Shown in pieces: positions 5,683-16,258 of a stretch of DNA of 18,140 bases. Numbering within the stretch: position 1 is the stretch's first letter; each line of letters starts with the position of its first letter. Location: positions 1 through 18,140 of the forward strand of contig CAYGKU010000016.1 of the NCBI GenBank assembly GCA_964350745.1. The letters run 5' to 3'. Source of the DNA: an uncultured Candidatus Saccharibacteria bacterium (GTDB taxonomy: Bacteria > Patescibacteriota > Minisyncoccia > Phycocordibacterales > UBA918). The notes below the pieces were generated by a model that did no database searches, was not told the origin of the DNA, and worked only from the letters and a program-made list of their open reading frames with translations. The translations under genes were made by a program, and so were the position numbers.

Positions 5683-5790
5683 CACTAAGTACCTGCTATC
5701 CCAGATCGCCACATCTTGCGCTAGGAAAGGCACAAAATGTATGGCTCCGCTTCACAAACAAGCACGAAAGCAAAGCAGGTTTTGCTAGTG
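5683..5790 (-). repeat. Copy F of the structured repeat family; an orphan with no adjacent tRNA
   Basis: The minus strand reads agcaaa-acctgc-tttgct, ttcgtgcttgtttgtg, aagcggag, a hairpin with loop tttcctag, cgatctggg, then acttagtg. Block order and spacing match copies A and B. It overlaps only a 63-aa ORF (5597-5788) that has no support. Confidence 0.65.
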
Positions 5791-5950: not shown

Positions 5951-7156
5951 ATGACATATTCAAAAAAGCCAAATCCTTTTAATCCAAACGGAGTAGTATC
6001 GCCTAATCTCTTTGCAGGCAGGTCAGCTCAGGTAAACAAAATATTAAGAAAGCTAGAGTTGGCGAAAAATGGCACACCCTCAAGCTTCATTTTTGTTGGA
6101 GATCGTGGTATTGGTAAAACTGCATTGGCTAAGCTAACGCGCTTTGTGGCAACTAGTAACGATGAGGGTTTATATAACCTAAACTTTCTCTCATCATATT
6201 ATTCTGTGGCAAGAGGACAATCGACTCCAGAAGTTTTGCAAGCGTCTTTAAACGAACTCACTGAGAGGATGCCTTCAGGAGTTTTAGATAAAATGCAGAG
6301 GCATTTAGGGAAGTTGTTTTCAAATGGAAAGTTTTCAATTGGTGCCTTTGGCGCATCTGTTGAAATTGCCGGTGGTGAAACGCAGGACGACACTACAGTT
6401 CGTGACCAAGTCATATCAATACTCTCGAATGTGATAACTGCCTTGCGAGAAGAACCAGACAGTCCCAAGGATGGTGTGTTAATCGTAATTGATGAGTTGA
6501 ACAATCTTTCGGATATTCAAGAATGTGCTCAGCTGGTTAGAGGTATTGTAACTACACTAGATATAAAAGATTTAGGCTATATATCTTTCATTTTGATTGG
6601 GTATAGAGATACGGAACGAAAATTTTTTGAAGGAGATGAATCAGCAAGGCGTAACATTGATGAAGTGTCATTGAACCCTATGCCAGACGAAGAAGCGTAT
6701 CAGATTTTGTGTAAAGGTTTTGAGAGTGCGGAAGTAAAATGGGACGAGCCAGCAGCAAGGGATTCGATTAAGAGAACAGCAGGTTATCCGTACGCTGTGC
6801 AGCTTTTGGGTCATAATGCCTATGAAGCTGATACAGATGGAAACATTGATGAAGATGATTGGATAAAAGCAACTGTATCAACAGCACTTGAACTTCAGAC
6901 TAAAGAATTTTCAACGATGTATTCATTTCAAGGTAAAAAAGGCTCCCGAGAAGCAATAATTGATTGTGTAATTGATAATAATGCTTGTCTTTCTAAATCT
7001 CATATTAATAGCCTGTGTCCGAAGTTAAATGTATACAGAGAATTGCCCAAGCTTATTCAACAAGGGAGCTTAATTGAGGATGCTGACGGAAAGATTTGTA
7101 TCAGTTCCCAGTTACTTAGGTGGGCAGTCATTTTCTCAAGACCGGATAAACAATAA
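5951..7156 (+). CDS. P-loop NTPase of the ORC/Cdc6 - archaeal-ATPase (PF01637-like) / STAND style, with a helical and probable winged-helix C-terminus
   Basis: N-terminal FAGRSAQVNKILRKL (the F-x-G/D-R-x-x-E/Q-hhh-L lead-in typical of this class). Walker A GDRGIGKT (aa 50-57). Walker B VLIVIDELNNL (aa 176-186). No enzymatic effector domain was recognised. Confidence 0.6.
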   Translation: MTYSKKPNPFNPNGVVSPNLFAGRSAQVNKILRKLELAKNGTPSSFIFVGDRGIGKTALAKLTRFVATSNDEGLYNLNFLSSYYSVARGQSTPEVLQASLNELTERMPSGVLDKMQRHLGKLFSNGKFSIGAFGASVEIAGGETQDDTTVRDQVISILSNVITALREEPDSPKDGVLIVIDELNNLSDIQECAQLVRGIVTTLDIKDLGYISFILIGYRDTERKFFEGDESARRNIDEVSLNPMPDEEAYQILCKGFESAEVKWDEPAARDSIKRTAGYPYAVQLLGHNAYEADTDGNIDEDDWIKATVSTALELQTKEFSTMYSFQGKKGSREAIIDCVIDNNACLSKSHINSLCPKLNVYRELPKLIQQGSLIEDADGKICISSQLLRWAVIFSRPDKQ

Positions 7157-7181
7157 AACCACTCAGCTGAGTGGTTTTATT
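7155..7181 (+). terminator. Rho-independent terminator after the ATPase gene
   Basis: aaaaccactcagc/gctgagtggtttt is a perfect palindromic stem followed by attgttt. Confidence 0.7.
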
Positions 7182-7242
7182 GTTTCTAGACTGACTGAGA
7201 TTGGTGGGGTATTAACCCCTCTCAGTAGGTCTCACTATTAGG

Positions 7243-7350
7243 TGCCCCCAGCAGGAATCCTCTACGAGCCGGGGATGTTGTTGTCTTATTAGACATCCAA
7301 CATCCCTTCGATTCCTGGCGTGAGCAAAACTATTTGCTCACTCTGGGGGC
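7243..7350 (-). repeat. Copy C: a compact variant of the repeat family built as a long foldback of tRNA 3'-end-like arms
   Basis: tgcccccagcaggaatc (7243-7259) is identical to the + strand image of the tRNA-Arg(TCT) 3' end (7558-7574). A 9/10-bp hairpin ggggatgttg...caacatccct lies at 7271-7307. ttcgattcctggcgtgagca (7307-7326) is 19/20 identical to the tRNA-Arg(GCG) 3' end (321-340). The hairpin tgagcaaa-acta-tttgctca (7321-7340) is the reverse-loop version of the A/B hairpin. The copy ends ctctgggggc (7341-7350). Confidence 0.65.
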
Positions 7351-7399
7351 ATATAGTTTAGTTTGCAGGAATCGGTCAGGAGTCAGTTATTTTTATGTT

Positions 7400-7509
7400 C
7401 ATTTCATTCACTAAAAATATACTGCTCACGACCCTGACTCGACTCTCTCTTTCTCCGCTTTGCTACGAAATTCACATGAGTCTCCGTCTTTCGATTCCTG
7501 CTGGGGGCT
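7400..7509 (-). repeat. Copy G of the structured repeat family, directly behind tRNA-Arg(TCT)
   Basis: The minus strand reads agcccccagcaggaatcga (an inverted copy of the tRNA 3' end, 7491-7508, 18/18), then agacggagac (7480-7489), tcgagtcagggtc (7430-7442) and ttagtgaat (7406-7414). These are collinear with copies D and A. Confidence 0.65.
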
Positions 7510-7520
7510 ACAAACAGCAA

Positions 7521-7548
7521 CGACCAAAATGTATACACATTTTGGTCG
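7521..7548 (-). terminator. Hairpin terminator between tRNA-Arg(TCT) and its inverted 3'-end copy
   Basis: cgaccaaaatgt/acattttggtcg is a 12-bp perfect stem with loop atac. It forms the core of a longer palindrome spanning 7491-7576. Confidence 0.6.
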
Positions 7549-7557
7549 GCTGATTTG

Positions 7558-7629
7558 TGCCCCCAGCAGGAATCGAACCCACATCAAGAGCTTAGAAGTC
7601 TCCTGTTCTATCCATTGAACTATGGGGGC
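7558..7629 (-). tRNA. tRNA-Arg (anticodon TCT)
   Basis: The reverse complement folds as a 72-nt cloverleaf. Acceptor GCCCCCA/TGGGGGC, D arm GTTC/GAAC, anticodon loop CTTCTAA, T arm GTGGG-TTCGATT-CCTGC, discriminator A. No CCA is encoded. Confidence 0.9.
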
Positions 7630-7748
7630 AATGGATCGTGTCTCACAGGATAACAAAAAAATGCCTAATAGGGAATAGTTGGCGGAATCATATAAAAAAG
7701 CAGAGGTGTGAAAAAATATTTTCACACCTCTTAAATGGTAAGTACTTT

Positions 7749-8183
7749 TCATCTTGGTTTAGGTTGTCTAAATTTGAATTTCTTAAAAGATCCATATAAA
7801 TCTATAAGCATCCTTTTAAATTTTTTGGACCACTTATTTTTCGCTCTCAAACATTCCACAATCTCATCTTCCAGCATAGGTAGTGAATAATTTTTTATAA
7901 TATCACCATCATTATCTTGGTGTGTGCGAATTTCTGTACCAACAGAGTAGCATCCGCCGATAATCCTTAGGTAGCGAAAAGTGTAATCTGTTGTGTATCC
8001 GTTGACCTCGATTGATATATGTGGATGATCGACATCGTTATCTGAGTGCAGAAGTAAAGGTGTGCCATTAATGGATTTGTCATAATCGCCAAAAACCACT
8101 TTGTGAATCCCAATTCTATTTAAGAACTCAGTAACTGCCAGTTTGCCTGAGTCTAAAATCTCATTGCTGATTTCGGTAGACAT
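7749..8183 (-). CDS. Hypothetical 144-aa protein with no recognisable family
   Basis: Intact ORF with AGGAGA 7 nt upstream of the ATG. Basic C-terminal tail KKFKRMLIDLYGSFKKFKFRQPKPR. No motif was recognised. Confidence 0.5.
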   Translation of the reverse strand: MSTEISNEILDSGKLAVTEFLNRIGIHKVVFGDYDKSINGTPLLLHSDNDVDHPHISIEVNGYTTDYTFRYLRIIGGCYSVGTEIRTHQDNDGDIIKNYSLPMLEDEIVECLRAKNKWSKKFKRMLIDLYGSFKKFKFRQPKPR

Positions 8184-8313
8184 ATTGTTCTCCTATATTT
8201 TTTAGCAAGTTTGAACTTGGCTCTAAATGAACTGATTCAACCCTACTTAATTTGTTCAAGAAAGTTGTTGCTCTTTTAAATATAGAACAAAATGGTTTTT
8301 GTGTAAATAGCAA

Positions 8314-8343
8314 TTAAAAAACAGCGCTTGATAAACAAGCGCC
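8314..8343 (-). terminator. Rho-independent terminator of the 283-aa gene
   Basis: On the minus strand, ggcgcttg-tttat-caagcgct is followed by gtttttt. It begins 2 nt after the stop at 8345, which makes the 283-aa and 144-aa genes separate transcription units. Confidence 0.7.
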
Positions 8344-8344
8344 G

Positions 8345-9196
8345 CTAATATTCATCGTCAAAACAGATGAAGTTGATCATTTCATTTGCCATTTTTACGA
8401 TCTCATCATTGTCTGACTTCTGAAGACCTTTTGTTATTTTTAAGGTTCTAAAAACCCCTCTTTTGTTTGCATTTACTCTTCTTTGGAGATTCCTTTCTTT
8501 TGGGTTTAGTCCAAAAAAATGAGCCTGCACTTCTGTGGGAACTGATGATCCTTCGTCTCCCGGAAAACCAAGCATCAGGTCTCTTCCCAAAGAACAAAAG
8601 CGTTTAAGTTTTTCAAATATCGGTGAACTTTTGAATTTTTCAAAAGAAGCCAGTCTATCCTCAAACTCTGGTCCGAACGGAACCTGGTCGATCCTTTCCG
8701 GATAGGTTGGAGGGGACAGTAGTACCAATCGGTCTATCTTGAACTTTTTGATACGCGTCTTTGCCAGTACACTGACAGCGATATGAGCTCCGTCACAAAG
8801 CCCGATCAAAGTGATGTCATCAAATACTCCAAATTCCTCGAAAAATATTTCCAGCAGATCGACCAGCTTTTCTGTCTGCAGGTCCAGAGTGTTGAGAGCT
8901 TTGTCATTTTCCGAAAACTCCTTGCCTGATGGAGTATATAAAAGACTGAACACTCCCTTTTCGACCAGTTGTTGAGACAGGCAATTGTATAGTGAACCGA
9001 TCAAAGTTCGATTTGAATTTCGATCTGCCCTTTGAGTGGTCCTGTCGATGAACACGACTAGTTTGTTTGCGTCCTTTGTTTTGGCGACAGTGTGTTGCAA
9101 AAAGTTACTTTCTATCCAAAGGTAACCGGCCCTTGAGGTGGTTGTCTTAGACCACCTTGCCTTTGTCTCCTCAAGCGGAGGTTGTTCTACTTGCAT
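8345..9196 (-). CDS. Alpha/beta-hydrolase-fold-like protein with cysteine in the nucleophile elbow (G-L-C-D-G)
   Basis: The strand/helix pattern KLVVFID ... FSLLYTPSG ... ITLIGLCDGAHIAVSVLA ... RLVLLSPP matches beta3 to beta6 of alpha/beta hydrolases. The Cys134 codon is at 8795-8797. Candidate acid and His residues lie downstream (GFPGDEGSS, QAHFFG). GGAGA sits upstream of the ATG. Confidence 0.45.
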   Translation of the reverse strand: MQVEQPPLEETKARWSKTTTSRAGYLWIESNFLQHTVAKTKDANKLVVFIDRTTQRADRNSNRTLIGSLYNCLSQQLVEKGVFSLLYTPSGKEFSENDKALNTLDLQTEKLVDLLEIFFEEFGVFDDITLIGLCDGAHIAVSVLAKTRIKKFKIDRLVLLSPPTYPERIDQVPFGPEFEDRLASFEKFKSSPIFEKLKRFCSLGRDLMLGFPGDEGSSVPTEVQAHFFGLNPKERNLQRRVNANKRGVFRTLKITKGLQKSDNDEIVKMANEMINFICFDDEY

Positions 9197-9257: not shown

Positions 9258-9433
9258 TATTTTGTTCCGCCTTCGACTTAATTTTTAATGACTGGAAGGG
9301 TGCCGTCCTGCGAATGAAAAATATAGTCGTCAACTCCTTATTTTACACTTAAAATGGAATTGCTCTTGTGGTGCAAGTCTCTGGCGACAAAATGCAAAAT
9401 TCCACCAGCAGAAGCTGGCGGAATTTCACATTG

Positions 9434-9591
9434 TGCGTGATGAGAGACTTGTCCCGCTTTTTCTAATTCACTACGTTCATAAGAACGCTGGACACGGCTC
9501 GACCGTTTCTCTCCCTAGGAAAGGGGAGAGAAACATGTCTCCGCCGTTCAAGTCTCTACGGAAAGCATGAAGATGCTTTCCTCATCGCGCA
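9434..9591 (-). repeat. Copy D of the structured repeat family, bounded by direct and inverted copies of the tRNA-Val 3' end
   Basis: The minus strand reads tgcgcgatgag, a hairpin ggaaagcatc-ttc-atgctttcc (9560-9581), agagacttgaac, ggcggagac, an 11-bp hairpin gtttctctccc/gggagagaaac (9505-9534) with a cctag-containing loop, tcgagccgtgtcc (9490-9502), gtagtgaat (9466-9474), and finally caagtctctcatcacgca (9434-9451). Confidence 0.75.
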
Positions 9592-9594
9592 CGA

Positions 9595-9632
9595 ACAAAA
9601 ATCGCCCAAGCAAAGCTTGAGCTGATTTTTGT
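9595..9632 (-). terminator. Hairpin terminator behind tRNA-Val
   Basis: acaaaaatc/gatttttgt forms an outer stem around an inner caagc/gcttg stem. It is embedded in a longer palindrome that includes ctcatcgcgca and its complement (9581-9648). Confidence 0.6.
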
Positions 9633-9637
9633 ACTCG

Positions 9638-10542: not shown

Positions 10543-11232
10543 ATGAATAATAGAGAAGAAAAAGTTCTACCCGGTTGTGTGGGATTTATCATGGATGGCA
10601 ATCGTCGTTTTGCTAAAGAGCAAGGGCTGAGTGCGGTTGAAGGACATTTGGCCGGAAAGGAAAAGTTTTTGGAGGTGACGGATTGGTTGGTGGAAATGAA
10701 AATACCACACGGAGTCTTTTATGCATTTTCGACCGAGAACTGGCGACGGGAAAAGGAAGAGGTTCAGTACTTGATGAATTTGTTTCGAGGACTTTTAGGG
10801 CAGATCAAAGATGGGTCAGATCAGCGGGAGGTGAACGTGAGGATCATCGGTCGACGCGATGATCTGCCGGAGGATATTCAAAACAGCATAAAAGAACTTG
10901 AAGCTAAAAAGTCTCAATATGAGACTACTATTTGGGTGGCGTTGTCGTACGGAGGGCGGGCGGAGATATTGGCGGCAGTGAACCGGGCGACTGCTCTTGG
11001 TGAAGAAGTGGATGAAGATAAGTTTTCCAAGCTACTCTCCACCGCCGATATGCCCGACCCTGATCTTATTGTTAGAACCAGTGGAGAGAAGAGACTGTCC
11101 AATTTTCTGCCGTGGCAATCCGTGTACAGCGAACTGTTCTTCATAGATACCTACTGGCCTGCTTTTACAAAACCAGAATTTGAGCGTATTCTAAATGAAT
11201 ATGGAAACAGAGAAAGAAGGATTGGGCGCTGA
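10543..11232 (+). CDS. uppS: Undecaprenyl-diphosphate synthase (cis-isoprenyl transferase)
   Basis: GFIMDGNRRFAKE, FSTENWRR and RTSGEKRLSNFLPWQSVYSELFF are the canonical UppS motifs. Confidence 0.9.
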   Translation: MNNREEKVLPGCVGFIMDGNRRFAKEQGLSAVEGHLAGKEKFLEVTDWLVEMKIPHGVFYAFSTENWRREKEEVQYLMNLFRGLLGQIKDGSDQREVNVRIIGRRDDLPEDIQNSIKELEAKKSQYETTIWVALSYGGRAEILAAVNRATALGEEVDEDKFSKLLSTADMPDPDLIVRTSGEKRLSNFLPWQSVYSELFFIDTYWPAFTKPEFERILNEYGNRERRIGR

Positions 11233-12044: not shown

Positions 12045-12674
12045 ATGAAAACAGCAGTTACAGGGGTGGCAATTTCACCCGTCAATATGAGTGAGCGCAA
12101 AGAGCTAGGTATCAGACCTGGTGATACAGTGCGTGTACACCAAAAGATCCAAGATAAGGGTAAGGTTCGTATTCAGGTTTTTGAAGGCTTGGTATTGGCC
12201 CGAAAGCACGGTGATGAGCCGGGAGCAACCTTTACCGTACGTAAGGTGGCTAGTGGAGTAGGGGTAGAGAAGATCTTCCCGTTATACTCACCACTTATCG
12301 ATAAGATCGAGATCGTGAAGCGAGCTAAGGTACGTCGAGCGAAGCTTTACTACATCCGTGAAAAAGTGGCTCGCGAGATCAAGCGTCAAATGCGTCGCAT
12401 GTCTCTAGTATCTTTTGCTACTGAATCTGAAGCGGAAGCAGCAGCAAAGGCAGCCGCAGAAGCTAAGGCGAAAGAAGAAGCTGAGGCCAAAGCCAAAGAA
12501 GAGGCTGAACTAAAAGAAAAAGAGGTAGCTGAAGCTAAGGCCAAGGAAGAGGCTGCTAAAGCCGAAGCTGAGACCGAAGTCAAAGCGGAAGAAGCTACCG
12601 AAACCGCTCCAGAGGAAGTAAAGGAAACTGAGGGAGAGAAAAAAGAAGAAAAAGCTGAAGAAAAGAAGAGCTAG
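12045..12674 (+). CDS. rplS: 50S ribosomal protein L19 with a ~90-aa Ala/Glu/Lys-rich C-terminal extension
   Basis: The L19 core is [33 protein letters not shown]...[43 protein letters not shown]. The tail is repetitive (EAKAKEEAE-like). Confidence 0.9.
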
Positions 12675-16205: not shown

Positions 16206-16258
16206 AACAAAACACCCGCCCCGCCGGCGTAGCCGGCGGGGCGGGTGTTTTGTATTTT
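16206..16258. terminator. GC-rich bidirectional terminator between the convergent hsp20 and NUDIX genes
   Basis: caaaacacccgccccgccggc-gta-gccggcggggcgggtgttttg is a 21-bp perfect stem flanked by A and T runs on both sides. Confidence 0.85.

Follow-up and report, generated by a model that had tools for sequence, protein, structure and literature searches.

The segment 7260–7574 of the DNA analysed here (the window, 18,140 nt of a contig from an uncultured Candidatus Saccharibacteria bacterium) probably represents two tandem units of a non-autonomous, strand-specific and hairpin-rich mobile family that targets tRNA and tmRNA genes, inserted in the tRNA-Arg(TCT) gene, within its 3′ part, by a mechanism that may involve single-stranded DNA or a guide. 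Alignment shows that syntenic relatives lack this 315-nt block. In four metagenome contigs from relatives (L116, L145, L182 and L183), which are 79–88% identical to window 7149–7241, the tRNA is joined straight to what in the window comes after the distal repeat, a comparison that the sequence-only reading had proposed and that came out in its favour. In L116, window 7149–7259 maps to 10674–10787 and window 7554–7630 maps to 10618–10694, the two flanks thus overlapping, and the same overlapping mapping is seen in L145, L183 and L182. The relatives read GGGGGCA-CCA-ACTAGTGAGACC; the distal copy in the window reads GGGGGCA-CCT-AATAGTGAGACC and the proximal copy continues with CAAATCAGC. Window 7260–7574, which four relatives lack, is therefore an insertion of 315 nt whose empty site is clean. 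It has pushed the ancestral 3′ end and the CCA relic 315 nt downstream, and the tRNA is intact because a copy of positions 56–73, a new trailer and a terminator follow the T-loop.

The repeats that bracket the insertion are perfect, as first described, and each is 1 nt longer than first described. The direct copy of the tRNA end (GTGCCCCCAGCAGGAATC), given by the sequence-only reading as 17 nt, spans 18 nt (7242–7259, identical to 7557–7574), while the inverted copy around the 12-bp hairpin, given as 18 nt, spans 19 nt (7490–7508 against 7558–7576) and extends into 29-nt arms at 86% (7490–7518 and 7549–7577) around the hairpin at 7521–7548. When the 400-nt trailer was shuffled 2000 times, no match to the tRNA end, direct or inverted, exceeded 11 nt, and a direct repeat of at least 12 nt occurs in only 3 of 116 loci that have the exact tRNA-Arg(TCT) end. 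As single-stranded DNA, 7242–7579 is predicted to fold at −98.3 kcal/mol, versus −36 ± 3.8 kcal/mol for shuffled sequence (z = −16.3). The probability that the palindromic region reflects an assembly artefact or a chance resemblance is close to nil. The only other contig with the neighbouring gene, from Logan assembly ERR3428549 (L001), does stop at 7484, inside the repeats; however, it is independent, is 100% identical to window 7484–8896 and already holds the complete inverted copy as well as the tRNA and the hairpin, the repeats lie far past the longest match in the shuffles, and the architecture recurs in dozens of independent assemblies. Misassembly, which had been named as a possible refutation, is thus unlikely.

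Two structured units lie between the direct repeat copies behind tRNA-Arg(TCT) (Table 1). The distal one (unit 2) had been described as a foldback, 'copy C', and this description stands: it runs GCCCCCAG, hairpin 7320–7341, CCAGGAATCGAA, hairpin 7272–7306 and GATTCCTGCTGGGGGC. It matches the covariance model at 7260–7341 (48.3 bits, E = 1.5e-9), and its 22-nt hairpin (hpA) splits the inverted copy at the boundary between acceptor and T-stem; a left palindrome and the P3 hairpin are missing, the former probably by deletion. The proximal one (unit 1, 'copy G') had been credited with the full block order and turns out to lack the 22-nt hairpin and to carry a degenerate P2, with a weak covariance-model match at 7430–7511 (18.1 bits, E = 0.066). 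Its P3 is homologous to the type II P3 (GGTCGAGAAC...GTGACC) found at other loci. Because unit 1 is present in the window without the 22-nt hairpin, this hairpin is dispensable for persistence, which counts against the mobile-family reading.

Table 1. Components of the tRNA-Arg(TCT) locus, from the tRNA gene to the ancestral terminator.
Feature	Positions	Strand	Description
tRNA-Arg(TCT)	7557..7629	(-)	ARAGORN; Rfam tRNA, 62.5 bits
Proximal direct repeat A	7557-7574/5		last 18-19 nt of the tRNA, T-loop C56/G57 to discriminator +1
Trailer B	7549..7556	(-)	AAATCAGC; stands where relatives have a CCA-containing trailer
Terminator-like hairpin T/T′	7521..7548	(-)	28 nt, 12-bp stem, loop GTAT; centre of the long palindrome
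B′	7509..7520	(-)	imperfect inverted copy of the trailer; 29-nt arms at 86%
A′1	7490..7508	(-)	perfect 19-nt inverted copy of tRNA positions 54-72; end is the complement of T54
Unit 1 P2 module	7432..7488	(-)	degenerate; 5′ GACGGAGAC ... 3′ GTCGAGTCAGGG; by motif comparison
Unit 1 P3 hairpin	7374..7433	(-)	ends ...CTGACC, the right end of unit 1; by folding
A*1	7365..7373	(-)	truncated direct copy GATTCCTGC, positions 57-65; remnant of the unit 2 left end
Spacer	7351..7364	(-)	14 nt; probable place of a deleted unit 2 left palindrome
A′2a	7343..7350	(-)	GCCCCCAG, inverted copy of the acceptor 3′ strand
hpA	7320..7341	(-)	conserved 22-nt hairpin GTGAGCAAATAGTTTTGCTCAC; 9 bp and TAGT loop
A′2b	7307..7318	(-)	CCAGGAATCGAA, inverted copy of T-stem and T-loop, ending at T54′
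Unit 2 P2-like hairpin	7272..7306	(-)	short; by folding
Unit 2 right-end tail	7260..7271	(-)	CGGCTCGTAGAG
A*2, distal direct repeat	7242..7259	(-)	18 nt; tRNA 3′ end of the ancestral state, with CCT after it as a remnant of an encoded CCA
Ancestral trailer and bidirectional terminator	7149..7241	(-)	directly after the tRNA in relatives

All four tRNAs in the window are trailed by architecture of this type, which comes in two variants. At tRNA-Val, the likeness to tRNA-Arg(TCT) that had been claimed is borne out by a direct repeat of 19 nt at 95%, together with an inverted copy that is split. The claim needs correction for tRNA-Leu, which had been placed in the same pattern: both it and tRNA-Arg(GCG) carry inverted copies with a direct repeat of only about 5 nt and belong to the second variant, inserted at the acceptor end. 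The junction of variant 1 lies in the T-loop (55/56|57) with a repeat of 18–21 nt, that of variant 2 at 72|73, after NNC72, with a repeat of about 5 nt, and in both variants the inverted copy runs 2–3 nt past the junction. From the left, a full unit consists of tRNA 56–76, trailer, terminator hairpin, inverted trailer and inverted acceptor strand, and then of the 22-nt hairpin, the inverted T-stem and loop to T54′, a P2 hairpin with an invariant GGA/GA internal loop and the P3 hairpin, followed by the direct repeat. In both variants, too, the 22-nt hairpin stands 13–14 nt from the end of the inverted copy, a distance seen at 27 of 46 loci; pairing ends at position 54 in 33/46 (over-extensions to 51/53 counted) and 69–70 in 6/46; and the direct repeat begins at C56 in 39 of 47 loci and stops at the tRNA end +0 to +3.

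A scan of 185,579 species genomes with the hairpin pattern returned 83 loci, about 60 of them in Patescibacteria and nearly all just downstream of a tRNA or tmRNA. Covariance-model matches have 30 tRNA species and tmRNA as targets; 54 of the 80 matches begin no more than 100 nt past the 3′ end of a tRNA or tmRNA on the same strand, where 1.2% would be expected. Orientation is same-sense in 54 cases and opposite in 3. This enrichment and the empty site support the earlier suggestion of one generating mechanism, rather than chance, at several tRNA loci. The genome sample picked by the hairpin pattern is a biased set; in a hairpin-blind sample, 8 of 155 other tRNAs had an inverted copy of at least 9 nt downstream, and none had one upstream. 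One genome (L035) carries a single core at different tRNAs, each time with flanks specific to the tRNA, and at the tRNA-Val site of relatives different cores are each matched to their own tRNA variant. Tandem arrays (L015, two units; L043, three units; L022) occur, as do larger cargo-bearing insertions at the same sites (L047, 4 kb; L006, 3.5 kb; L036, 0.9 kb). If the mobile-family reading is correct, a small and apparently undescribed mobile element is widespread in Patescibacteria and in a few other lineages; it enters essential tRNA and tmRNA genes but leaves them functional, and behind them it forms small islands that can take cargo genes. The palindromic arrays also break short-read assemblies at tRNA loci, and in the annotation of reduced genomes they risk being mistaken for terminators or small RNAs.

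The copies could also have been made locally, with no mobile element, by switching of the replication template at terminator hairpins (quasi-palindrome extension) together with slippage. In favour of this, the terminator hairpin is always the centre of the palindrome, the repair repertoires of Patescibacteria are reduced, and at one tRNA-Leu (L196) an extended palindrome reaches the acceptor end without any element or core modules, which suggests that part of the inverted copy could come from ordinary palindrome extension. However, local copying leaves unexplained the conservation of hpA, P2 and P3 across phylum-level distances and different tRNAs, the fixed end at T54 or position 70, and the clean 315-nt insertion bounded by 18-nt repeats, and we regard it as very improbable as an account of the whole. 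Spread of the core, which would speak against local copying, is already indicated by the repeated core of L035.

The P2 and P3 hairpins covary, 98.4% of cells are paired, and the 65 double changes exceed the 19.5 ± 4 of shuffled data, none of 500 shuffles being as high. Hairpin mismatches (85 versus 45) favour the tRNA-sense strand; the strand test by G.T versus A.C mismatches alone (30 versus 19, p = 0.15) is non-significant. GNRA-like loops and tandem G.A motifs occur in both P2 and P3, which, against the mobile-family reading, hints at an RNA role. The anti-tRNA segment and its hairpins could also form a host-functional cis-acting RNA or DNA device of tRNA transcription units, serving for example in termination, 3′ processing, as a tRNA-like decoy or in att-site protection, which would be inherited vertically with its complementarity kept by selection. 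The invariant GGA/GA loop, GNRA-like loops, strong covariation and strict tRNA-sense orientation would suit such a device, as would an inverted copy that remains perfect where the distal repeat decays (L020/L006, L036), inverted and direct copies that follow lineage-specific changes of tRNA-Val, and the modelled ability of inverted copy, core and direct copy to form an acceptor/T-stem minihelix. Yet presence and absence differ among close relatives at the same tRNA, the structure is rare in an unselected sample (4 matches in 755 kb), one and the same site holds different cores, some copies are in tandem and some truncated, and no Rfam family matches. The inverted copy also lies beyond the terminator U-tract and would therefore rarely be transcribed with the tRNA. 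A host device is accordingly improbable, although less so than local copying.

For the mobile family, we propose that the tRNA-sense strand, as single-stranded DNA (or RNA), would adopt a three-way junction with a basal helix lying across the cleavage site, and that an enzyme acting in trans would read the 22-nt hairpin and cut at a fixed distance from it, by analogy with the guide pairing of IS200/IS605, integron attC sites and the folded att sites of CTXphi. The target-derived direct and inverted flanks might be made at each insertion or be rapidly homogenised with the tRNA. Each insertion would regenerate the target, so that tandem arrays would build up with the newest unit adjoining the tRNA; at tRNA-Arg(TCT), unit 2 would be the older of the two and partly deleted, and unit 1 the more recent. 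A target-matched inverted copy, a hairpin at fixed distance and no linked recombinase fit no catalogued scheme of transposition or integration, and the enzyme, if found, could reveal a new structure- or sequence-guided chemistry of DNA insertion. More tentatively, and as a possibility that we would not yet favour, the family may be a new class of mobile DNA, in which direct and inverted flanks of about 20 nt, instead of being brought along by the element, are written from the target at each insertion and the enzyme cuts at a fixed distance from a three-way junction that the 22-nt hairpin and two helices would form with the sense strand of the tRNA gene. If true, this would be a self-reprogramming, guide-like system for which any tRNA or tmRNA gene is colonisable.

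Integrative elements and gene-less CIMEs at tRNA and tmRNA genes are among the closest established systems, and the units share with them insertion in the 3′ part of the gene, a direct repeat from T-loop to 3′ end, a functional gene with a regenerated target, tandem arrays, and gene-less units beside units with cargo. The features of an att-type site (a direct repeat at both ends of the insert, an intact tRNA and an empty site) are all present. The islands at the ssrA gene of Dehalococcoides are integrative elements at a tmRNA gene (PMC3146451), and tandem accretion is comparable to that of ICESt1-related elements. The locus could thus be the scar of a tyrosine-integrase island or prophage at the T-loop whose interior has been lost, with gene-less, CIME-like attL/attR segments accreting in tandem and with the inverted copy and hairpins as merely terminators and arm sites. 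The classical T-loop att sublocation of the direct repeat, tmRNA among the targets, the existing tandem arrays, the cargo-bearing insertions in the same sites (L047, L006 and L036) and the extra genes behind the window tRNAs relative to L133 all speak for it. However, no integrase was found in the cargo segments examined, the units measure only 100–300 nt, and more than 30 targets show an inverted copy that is specific to the tRNA and has its hairpin at a constant 13–14 nt, with one core at different tRNAs and its flanks re-derived each time. To our knowledge, classical attP sites hold the tRNA segment in direct orientation only, and the covariation of P2 over 40–60 nt points to single-strand folding rather than to duplex protein sites. 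We therefore consider an integrase scar unlikely, if the least unlikely of the rivals.

Searches for an enzyme, a known family or an earlier description were negative within their scope. Pfam and NCBIfam found no transposase or recombinase in the window ORFs, the cargo regions (ORFs of L006, L036, L047, L050 and L065) or the recurrent neighbours, which leaves room for an enzyme acting in trans from another part of the genome; when 509 neighbouring ORFs were clustered, the recurrent families were housekeeping ones (IF-2, MiaA, UvrA, PilT, RF2 and SmpB). PDB sequence searches with two candidate ORFs were negative, and no Y1 HUH transposase was seen within 8-kb windows of element-bearing genomes. 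Rfam 15 was run at both gathering and permissive thresholds on L009 and on the trailers of the window; apart from chance matches of microRNA type, it gave tRNA/tmRNA alone, and no match on the modules was credible. The tRNA itself was the sole match in plasmid DNA, and a scan of IMG/VR with the hairpin pattern gave 3 irrelevant matches, so that no source of attP in phages emerged. Excised or circular forms were not observed, which, like the lack of an enzyme, counts against the mobile family. Literature searches on the hairpin and on repeats or elements linked to tRNAs (Patescibacteria, CPR and Saccharibacteria) brought up no description.

Several systems that act on folded single strands share part of this architecture with the mobile family proposed here. 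CTXphi-type IMEX have a pair of inverted target-like copies with a short spacer, one strand of which folds to a target mimic, and the direct and inverted tRNA-end copies described here, 30–60 nt apart, fold likewise as one hairpin; the absence of an element-encoded recombinase, target regeneration and arrays are also shared. CTXphi uses host XerCD at dif, whereas the element here targets the T-loop or acceptor end of tRNA and tmRNA genes, has no phage genes and carries extra conserved hairpins (hpA, P2 and P3). Integron attC sites are likewise strand-specific and folded, with a stem across the cassette junction and a variable apex, and cassettes come with or without an ORF in polar arrays beside a fixed primary site. 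The element differs in that its stem sequence is copied from the target tRNA, its junctions read ..ACC|GAATCC and TTC|GA, and no GTTRRRY core, RYYYAAC inverse core, R/L boxes or intI were seen in it.

IS200/IS605 elements and their non-autonomous derivatives (PATEs and REP/RAYT) share strand specificity, subterminal hairpins, small size, multi-copy occurrence, the absence of classical terminal inverted repeats and the pairing of a hairpin-adjacent segment with nucleotides just 5′ of the cleavage site (GL/CL guide). The element, however, pairs over 12–25 nt plus 2–3 flank nt rather than over 4, has an 18–21-nt direct repeat and no Y1 transposase found, and its target appears to be set by tRNA position rather than by a fixed tetranucleotide; insertion falls after (G)TTC in variant 1 and after NNC72 in variant 2, with a long direct repeat present. 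IS91 and rolling-circle elements insert at GTTC or CTTG, and the junction directly 3′ of G53-T54-T55-C56 (GTTC) and the lack of a usual short target-site duplication recall IS91, although variant 2 does not follow GTTC and neither an HUH Y2 transposase nor ori/ter ends were recognised.

Other candidates were considered and rejected. A MITE, a DDE-transposon derivative, would need terminal inverted repeats, whereas here the inverted repeat has one arm at the left end and the other inside the unit, the right end (..GTGACC / ..GAAGCC) does not complement the left, and there is no short fixed duplication of 2–10 bp but a repeat of 18–21 nt (variant 1) or about 5 nt (variant 2). A fixed-length target-site duplication of the casposon/CRISPR-like kind suits variant 1, not variant 2. 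In a retroviral-type primer-binding site, TGG would stand for CCA; the inverted copy has none and follows the genomic trailer. An origin in restriction sites (TTCGAA) fails at the many target T-loops that are non-palindromic, including that of Arg(TCT), TTCGATT. In P2, loop sizes do not fit a K-turn or group II domain V, and a short ORF (GGAG..ATG) has a spacing of only 2 nt and unconserved frames.

The insertion behind tRNA-Arg(TCT) is best explained as two accreted units of a non-autonomous, strand-specific family of mobile elements that targets tRNA genes. Both copies of the tRNA 3' end that the sequence-only reading had picked out are perfect, the direct one over 18 nt and the inverted one over 19 nt, and 2000 shuffles of the trailer gave no match to the tRNA end longer than 11 nt. 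With the trailer included, the inverted pair has 29-nt arms (86%) enclosing a 28-nt hairpin, and the region as single-stranded DNA folds with z = -16.3 against shuffles. A Logan contig of run ERR3428549 (L001) is 100% identical to window 7484-8896 and spans the tRNA, the hairpin and the entire inverted copy, so the palindrome is no artefact of the present assembly. Misassembly and chance are excluded for practical purposes. The proposal of two stacked units held; however, the proximal unit has no 22-nt hairpin (hpA), and the distal unit is missing its left palindrome and P3.

Anatomy of the tRNA-Arg(TCT) locus, read in the tRNA sense (minus strand)
Feature	Window position	Strand, sequence or remark
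tRNA-Arg(TCT)	7557-7629	minus
Trailer	7549-7556	AAATCAGC
Terminator-like hairpin	7521-7548	
Inverted trailer	7509-7520	
Inverted copy of tRNA positions 72 to 54	7490-7508	
P2 module, degenerate	7432-7488	GACGGAGAC...GTCGAGTCAGGG
P3 hairpin	7374-7433	CTGACC at end
Direct copy, truncated	7365-7373	GATTCCTGC
Spacer	7351-7364	
Inverted acceptor strand	7343-7350	
hpA, 22-nt hairpin	7320-7341	GTGAGCAAATAGTTTTGCTCAC
Inverted T-stem/loop	7307-7318	
P2-like hairpin, short	7272-7306	
Tail	7260-7271	
Distal direct repeat	7242-7259	
Older trailer and bidirectional terminator	7149-7241	

That the 315 nt were inserted was established by scanning metagenome contigs for the exact tRNA-Arg(TCT) 3' end (L-numbers denote the genome loci and metagenome contigs compared with the window). 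The alignments of window 7149-7259 and 7554-7630 to L116 overlap, which means that this contig has one copy of the direct repeat and none of the 315 nt in between. The empty-site comparison proposed earlier for such loci was thus borne out, L116, L145, L183 and L182 all being without the insert at flank identities of 79-89%. These relatives read ...GGGGGCA CCA ACTAGTGAGACCTAC..., and the window has CCT AATAGTGAGACCTAC... after the distal repeat and CAAATCAGC after the working tRNA end. Since the flank of the distal repeat resembles that of the relatives, whereas that of the working end differs, the distal copy is the ancestral 3' end. Among the 116 loci sharing the tRNA-Arg(TCT) end, direct repeats reaching 12 nt or more are confined to 3.

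Related trailers follow all four tRNAs of the window. The sequence-only reading gave one architecture for Arg(TCT), Val and Leu, which needs correcting: Leu, like Arg(GCG), carries variant 2, with the junction at the acceptor end (72|73) and almost no direct repeat. A species-level scan (one genome per species, query GNNAGCAAATAGTTTTGCTNNC) returned 83 loci, about 60 of them in Patescibacteria (Saccharibacteria, Paceibacteria, Magasanikbacteria and others). Almost every one of the 83 sits a short way downstream of a tRNA or tmRNA gene in a common layout; the hairpin has the same sense as the tRNA in 54 cases and the opposite sense in 3. Alignment of 30 copies revealed three covarying helices and an invariant GGA/GA internal loop, with 98.4% of cells paired and 65 double changes against 19.5 +/- 4 after shuffling, a count that none of 500 shuffles reached. 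The covariance model (CM) built from it found 80 strong matches in the genome loci, covering 30 tRNA species and tmRNA. The enrichment anticipated at other tRNA loci is evident in these matches, 54 of which begin no more than 100 nt past the 3' end of a tRNA or tmRNA on the same strand (expected, 1.2%), and 12 more are second or third array units. The genome loci came from the hairpin scan; in a metagenome sample picked independently of the hairpin, CM matches were rare (4 in 755 kb: L129 twice, L099, L145). Both the L099 match and the L145 match belong to tRNA trailers; of the L129 pair, one overlaps a stretch that aligns with the end and trailer of tRNA-Arg(GCG) in the window. In the same sample, 8 of 155 other tRNAs had an inverted copy of 9 nt or longer on the downstream side, and none had one upstream.

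Several further carriers were observed. In tmRNA (ssrA) of L005, L009 and L025, elements sit at the T-loop of the tRNA-like domain, with two stacked units of differing cores in L025. Outside Patescibacteria, L049, L060 and L071 (Verrucomicrobia MAG) and L044 and L048 (Gammaproteobacteria MAGs) carry an identical 16-nt hairpin core, with its outer stem paired and inverted flanks like those of variant 2, which points to horizontal spread or to a broader family. An extra small hairpin, NNNCC-TGTAA-GGNNN, with a covarying stem and an anticodon-loop-like CTGTAAG loop, lies by the right end of some units (L010, L016, L063, L075, L084, L003, L011).

The junctions are regular. The direct repeat starts at T-loop C56 or G57 (position 56 is C in 39 of 47 copies) and ends at the tRNA end +0 to +3. 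In variant 1, with the T-loop junction, the inverted copy stops at the complement of T54, 2-3 nt past the junction; its end point in variant 2 (Arg(GCG) and Leu of the window; L039, L045, L011, L030) is position 70, likewise 2-3 nt past. The distance from the 22-nt hairpin to the end of the inverted copy is 13-14 nt in 27 of 46 loci, across both variants, and the hpA slot holds unrelated hairpins of equal size (9 bp and a 4-nt loop) in relatives. Near-identical units form tandem arrays in L015 (two), L043 (three) and L022. An integrase scar would account for the direct repeat and the arrays, leaving the inverted copy, the ruler-like spacing and the covariation unexplained. At the same tRNA T-loop, L153 holds tandem units of about 150 nt from a different, unrelated-looking family, whose direct repeats begin at T54.

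Units spread among tRNAs and turn over at a single site. One genome (L035) has four tRNAs within 8 kb with one unit each, the cores being 80-94% identical within pairs of units and the flanks matching each unit's own tRNA. At the tRNA-Val site, cores differ among the window, L196, L116, L145 and L030, and the inverted and direct copies match the tRNA-Val variant of each lineage; in the window unit (9433-9636, minus strand) the hpA slot is filled by a different hairpin, GAAAGCATCTTCATGCTTTC. Presence or absence between relatives, core swapping and truncated copies fit poorly with a host-functional RNA, which is nevertheless hinted at by tandem G.A and GNRA-like motifs and by the well-preserved inverted copy. 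Pure template-switch palindrome growth may contribute: the tRNA-Leu(gag) terminator of L196 is an extended palindrome reaching into the acceptor 3' strand and the encoded CCA without element modules, and may represent a landing pad, the footprint of an excision or a palindrome that grew independently. The conserved cores, however, could not be created in this way.

For the favoured mobile-element reading, the sense strand would fold into a three-way junction with a basal helix across the cut site, and a trans-acting enzyme may use the 22-nt hairpin as a ruler; flanks that match the target could be written during insertion or homogenised later. Hairpin mismatches favour folding of the tRNA-sense strand (85 vs 45), the strand difference not being significant for G.T versus A.C mismatches taken alone. 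As analogies for how such elements might work, IS200/IS605 guide pairing, integron attC and the folded CTXphi attP come closest; as a descriptive category, the integrase-type tRNA island does, its gene-less derivatives (CIMEs) included. At least one tested defining feature fails for the island, for attC and for CTXphi, and membership in IS200/IS605 is doubtful. No Rfam family matched, and an incomplete literature search found no mention of the hairpin or of such elements, of which an earlier description may exist. We consider it unlikely, though well short of negligible, that a mechanism of a new kind underlies the elements.

Larger insertions also occupy element sites, including 4 kb between two element copies in L047, 3.5 kb extra between tRNA-Val and an old unit in L006 versus L020, and an insertion with a DUF6624 gene in L036. 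No recognisable recombinase is encoded in these three insertions or was found in the window, and the recurrent neighbours of elements are housekeeping genes. A 227-aa ORF beside tRNA-Val in L030 (4805-5488, minus strand) combines an HTH-like N-terminal region with an 'ALYWGEGSK' motif that recalls LAGLIDADG nucleases; its homologue (L006 5338-6021, minus strand) lies within the 3.5-kb tRNA-Val island. Pfam was negative for the L006 copy and a PDB sequence search for the L030 copy.

Synteny with the window extends across the Arg(GCG)-RuvX-pil-Arg(TCT) region in L133 and L182, and both are missing the elements, a DUF1697 gene and a STAND/AAA_16-type P-loop ATPase gene (5951-7156, plus strand), of which they have no homologue. 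Given this absence, the ATPase gene is probably cargo of a tRNA-linked islet. It is flanked by the Arg(TCT) array and by an orphan degenerate element copy (5697-5789, minus strand; hairpin AGCAAAACCTGCTTTGCT, arm GTGCTTGTTTGTG, P2 with one deletion) with no adjoining tRNA (CM 28.3 bits, E = 1.7e-4). Behind tRNA-Arg(GCG) (342-700, 781-1317), a full variant-2 unit (342-556) is followed by an older remnant, with a 12-nt inverted tRNA-end copy (580-591) and a degenerate P2, and then by the DUF1697 gene; tRNA-Arg(GCG) to RuvX is 66 nt in L133, so the window holds about 950 nt extra.

Elsewhere in the window, a perfect 22-bp palindrome between convergent genes (16207-16253; ACAAAACACCCGCCCCGCCGGC / GCCGGCGGGGCGGGTGTTTTGT) is probably a bidirectional terminator. 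In the ribosomal protein L19 gene (12045-12674, plus strand; 209 aa), degenerate 24-nt repeats (12429-12600) code for a long C-terminal extension with a high content of Ala, Glu and Lys.
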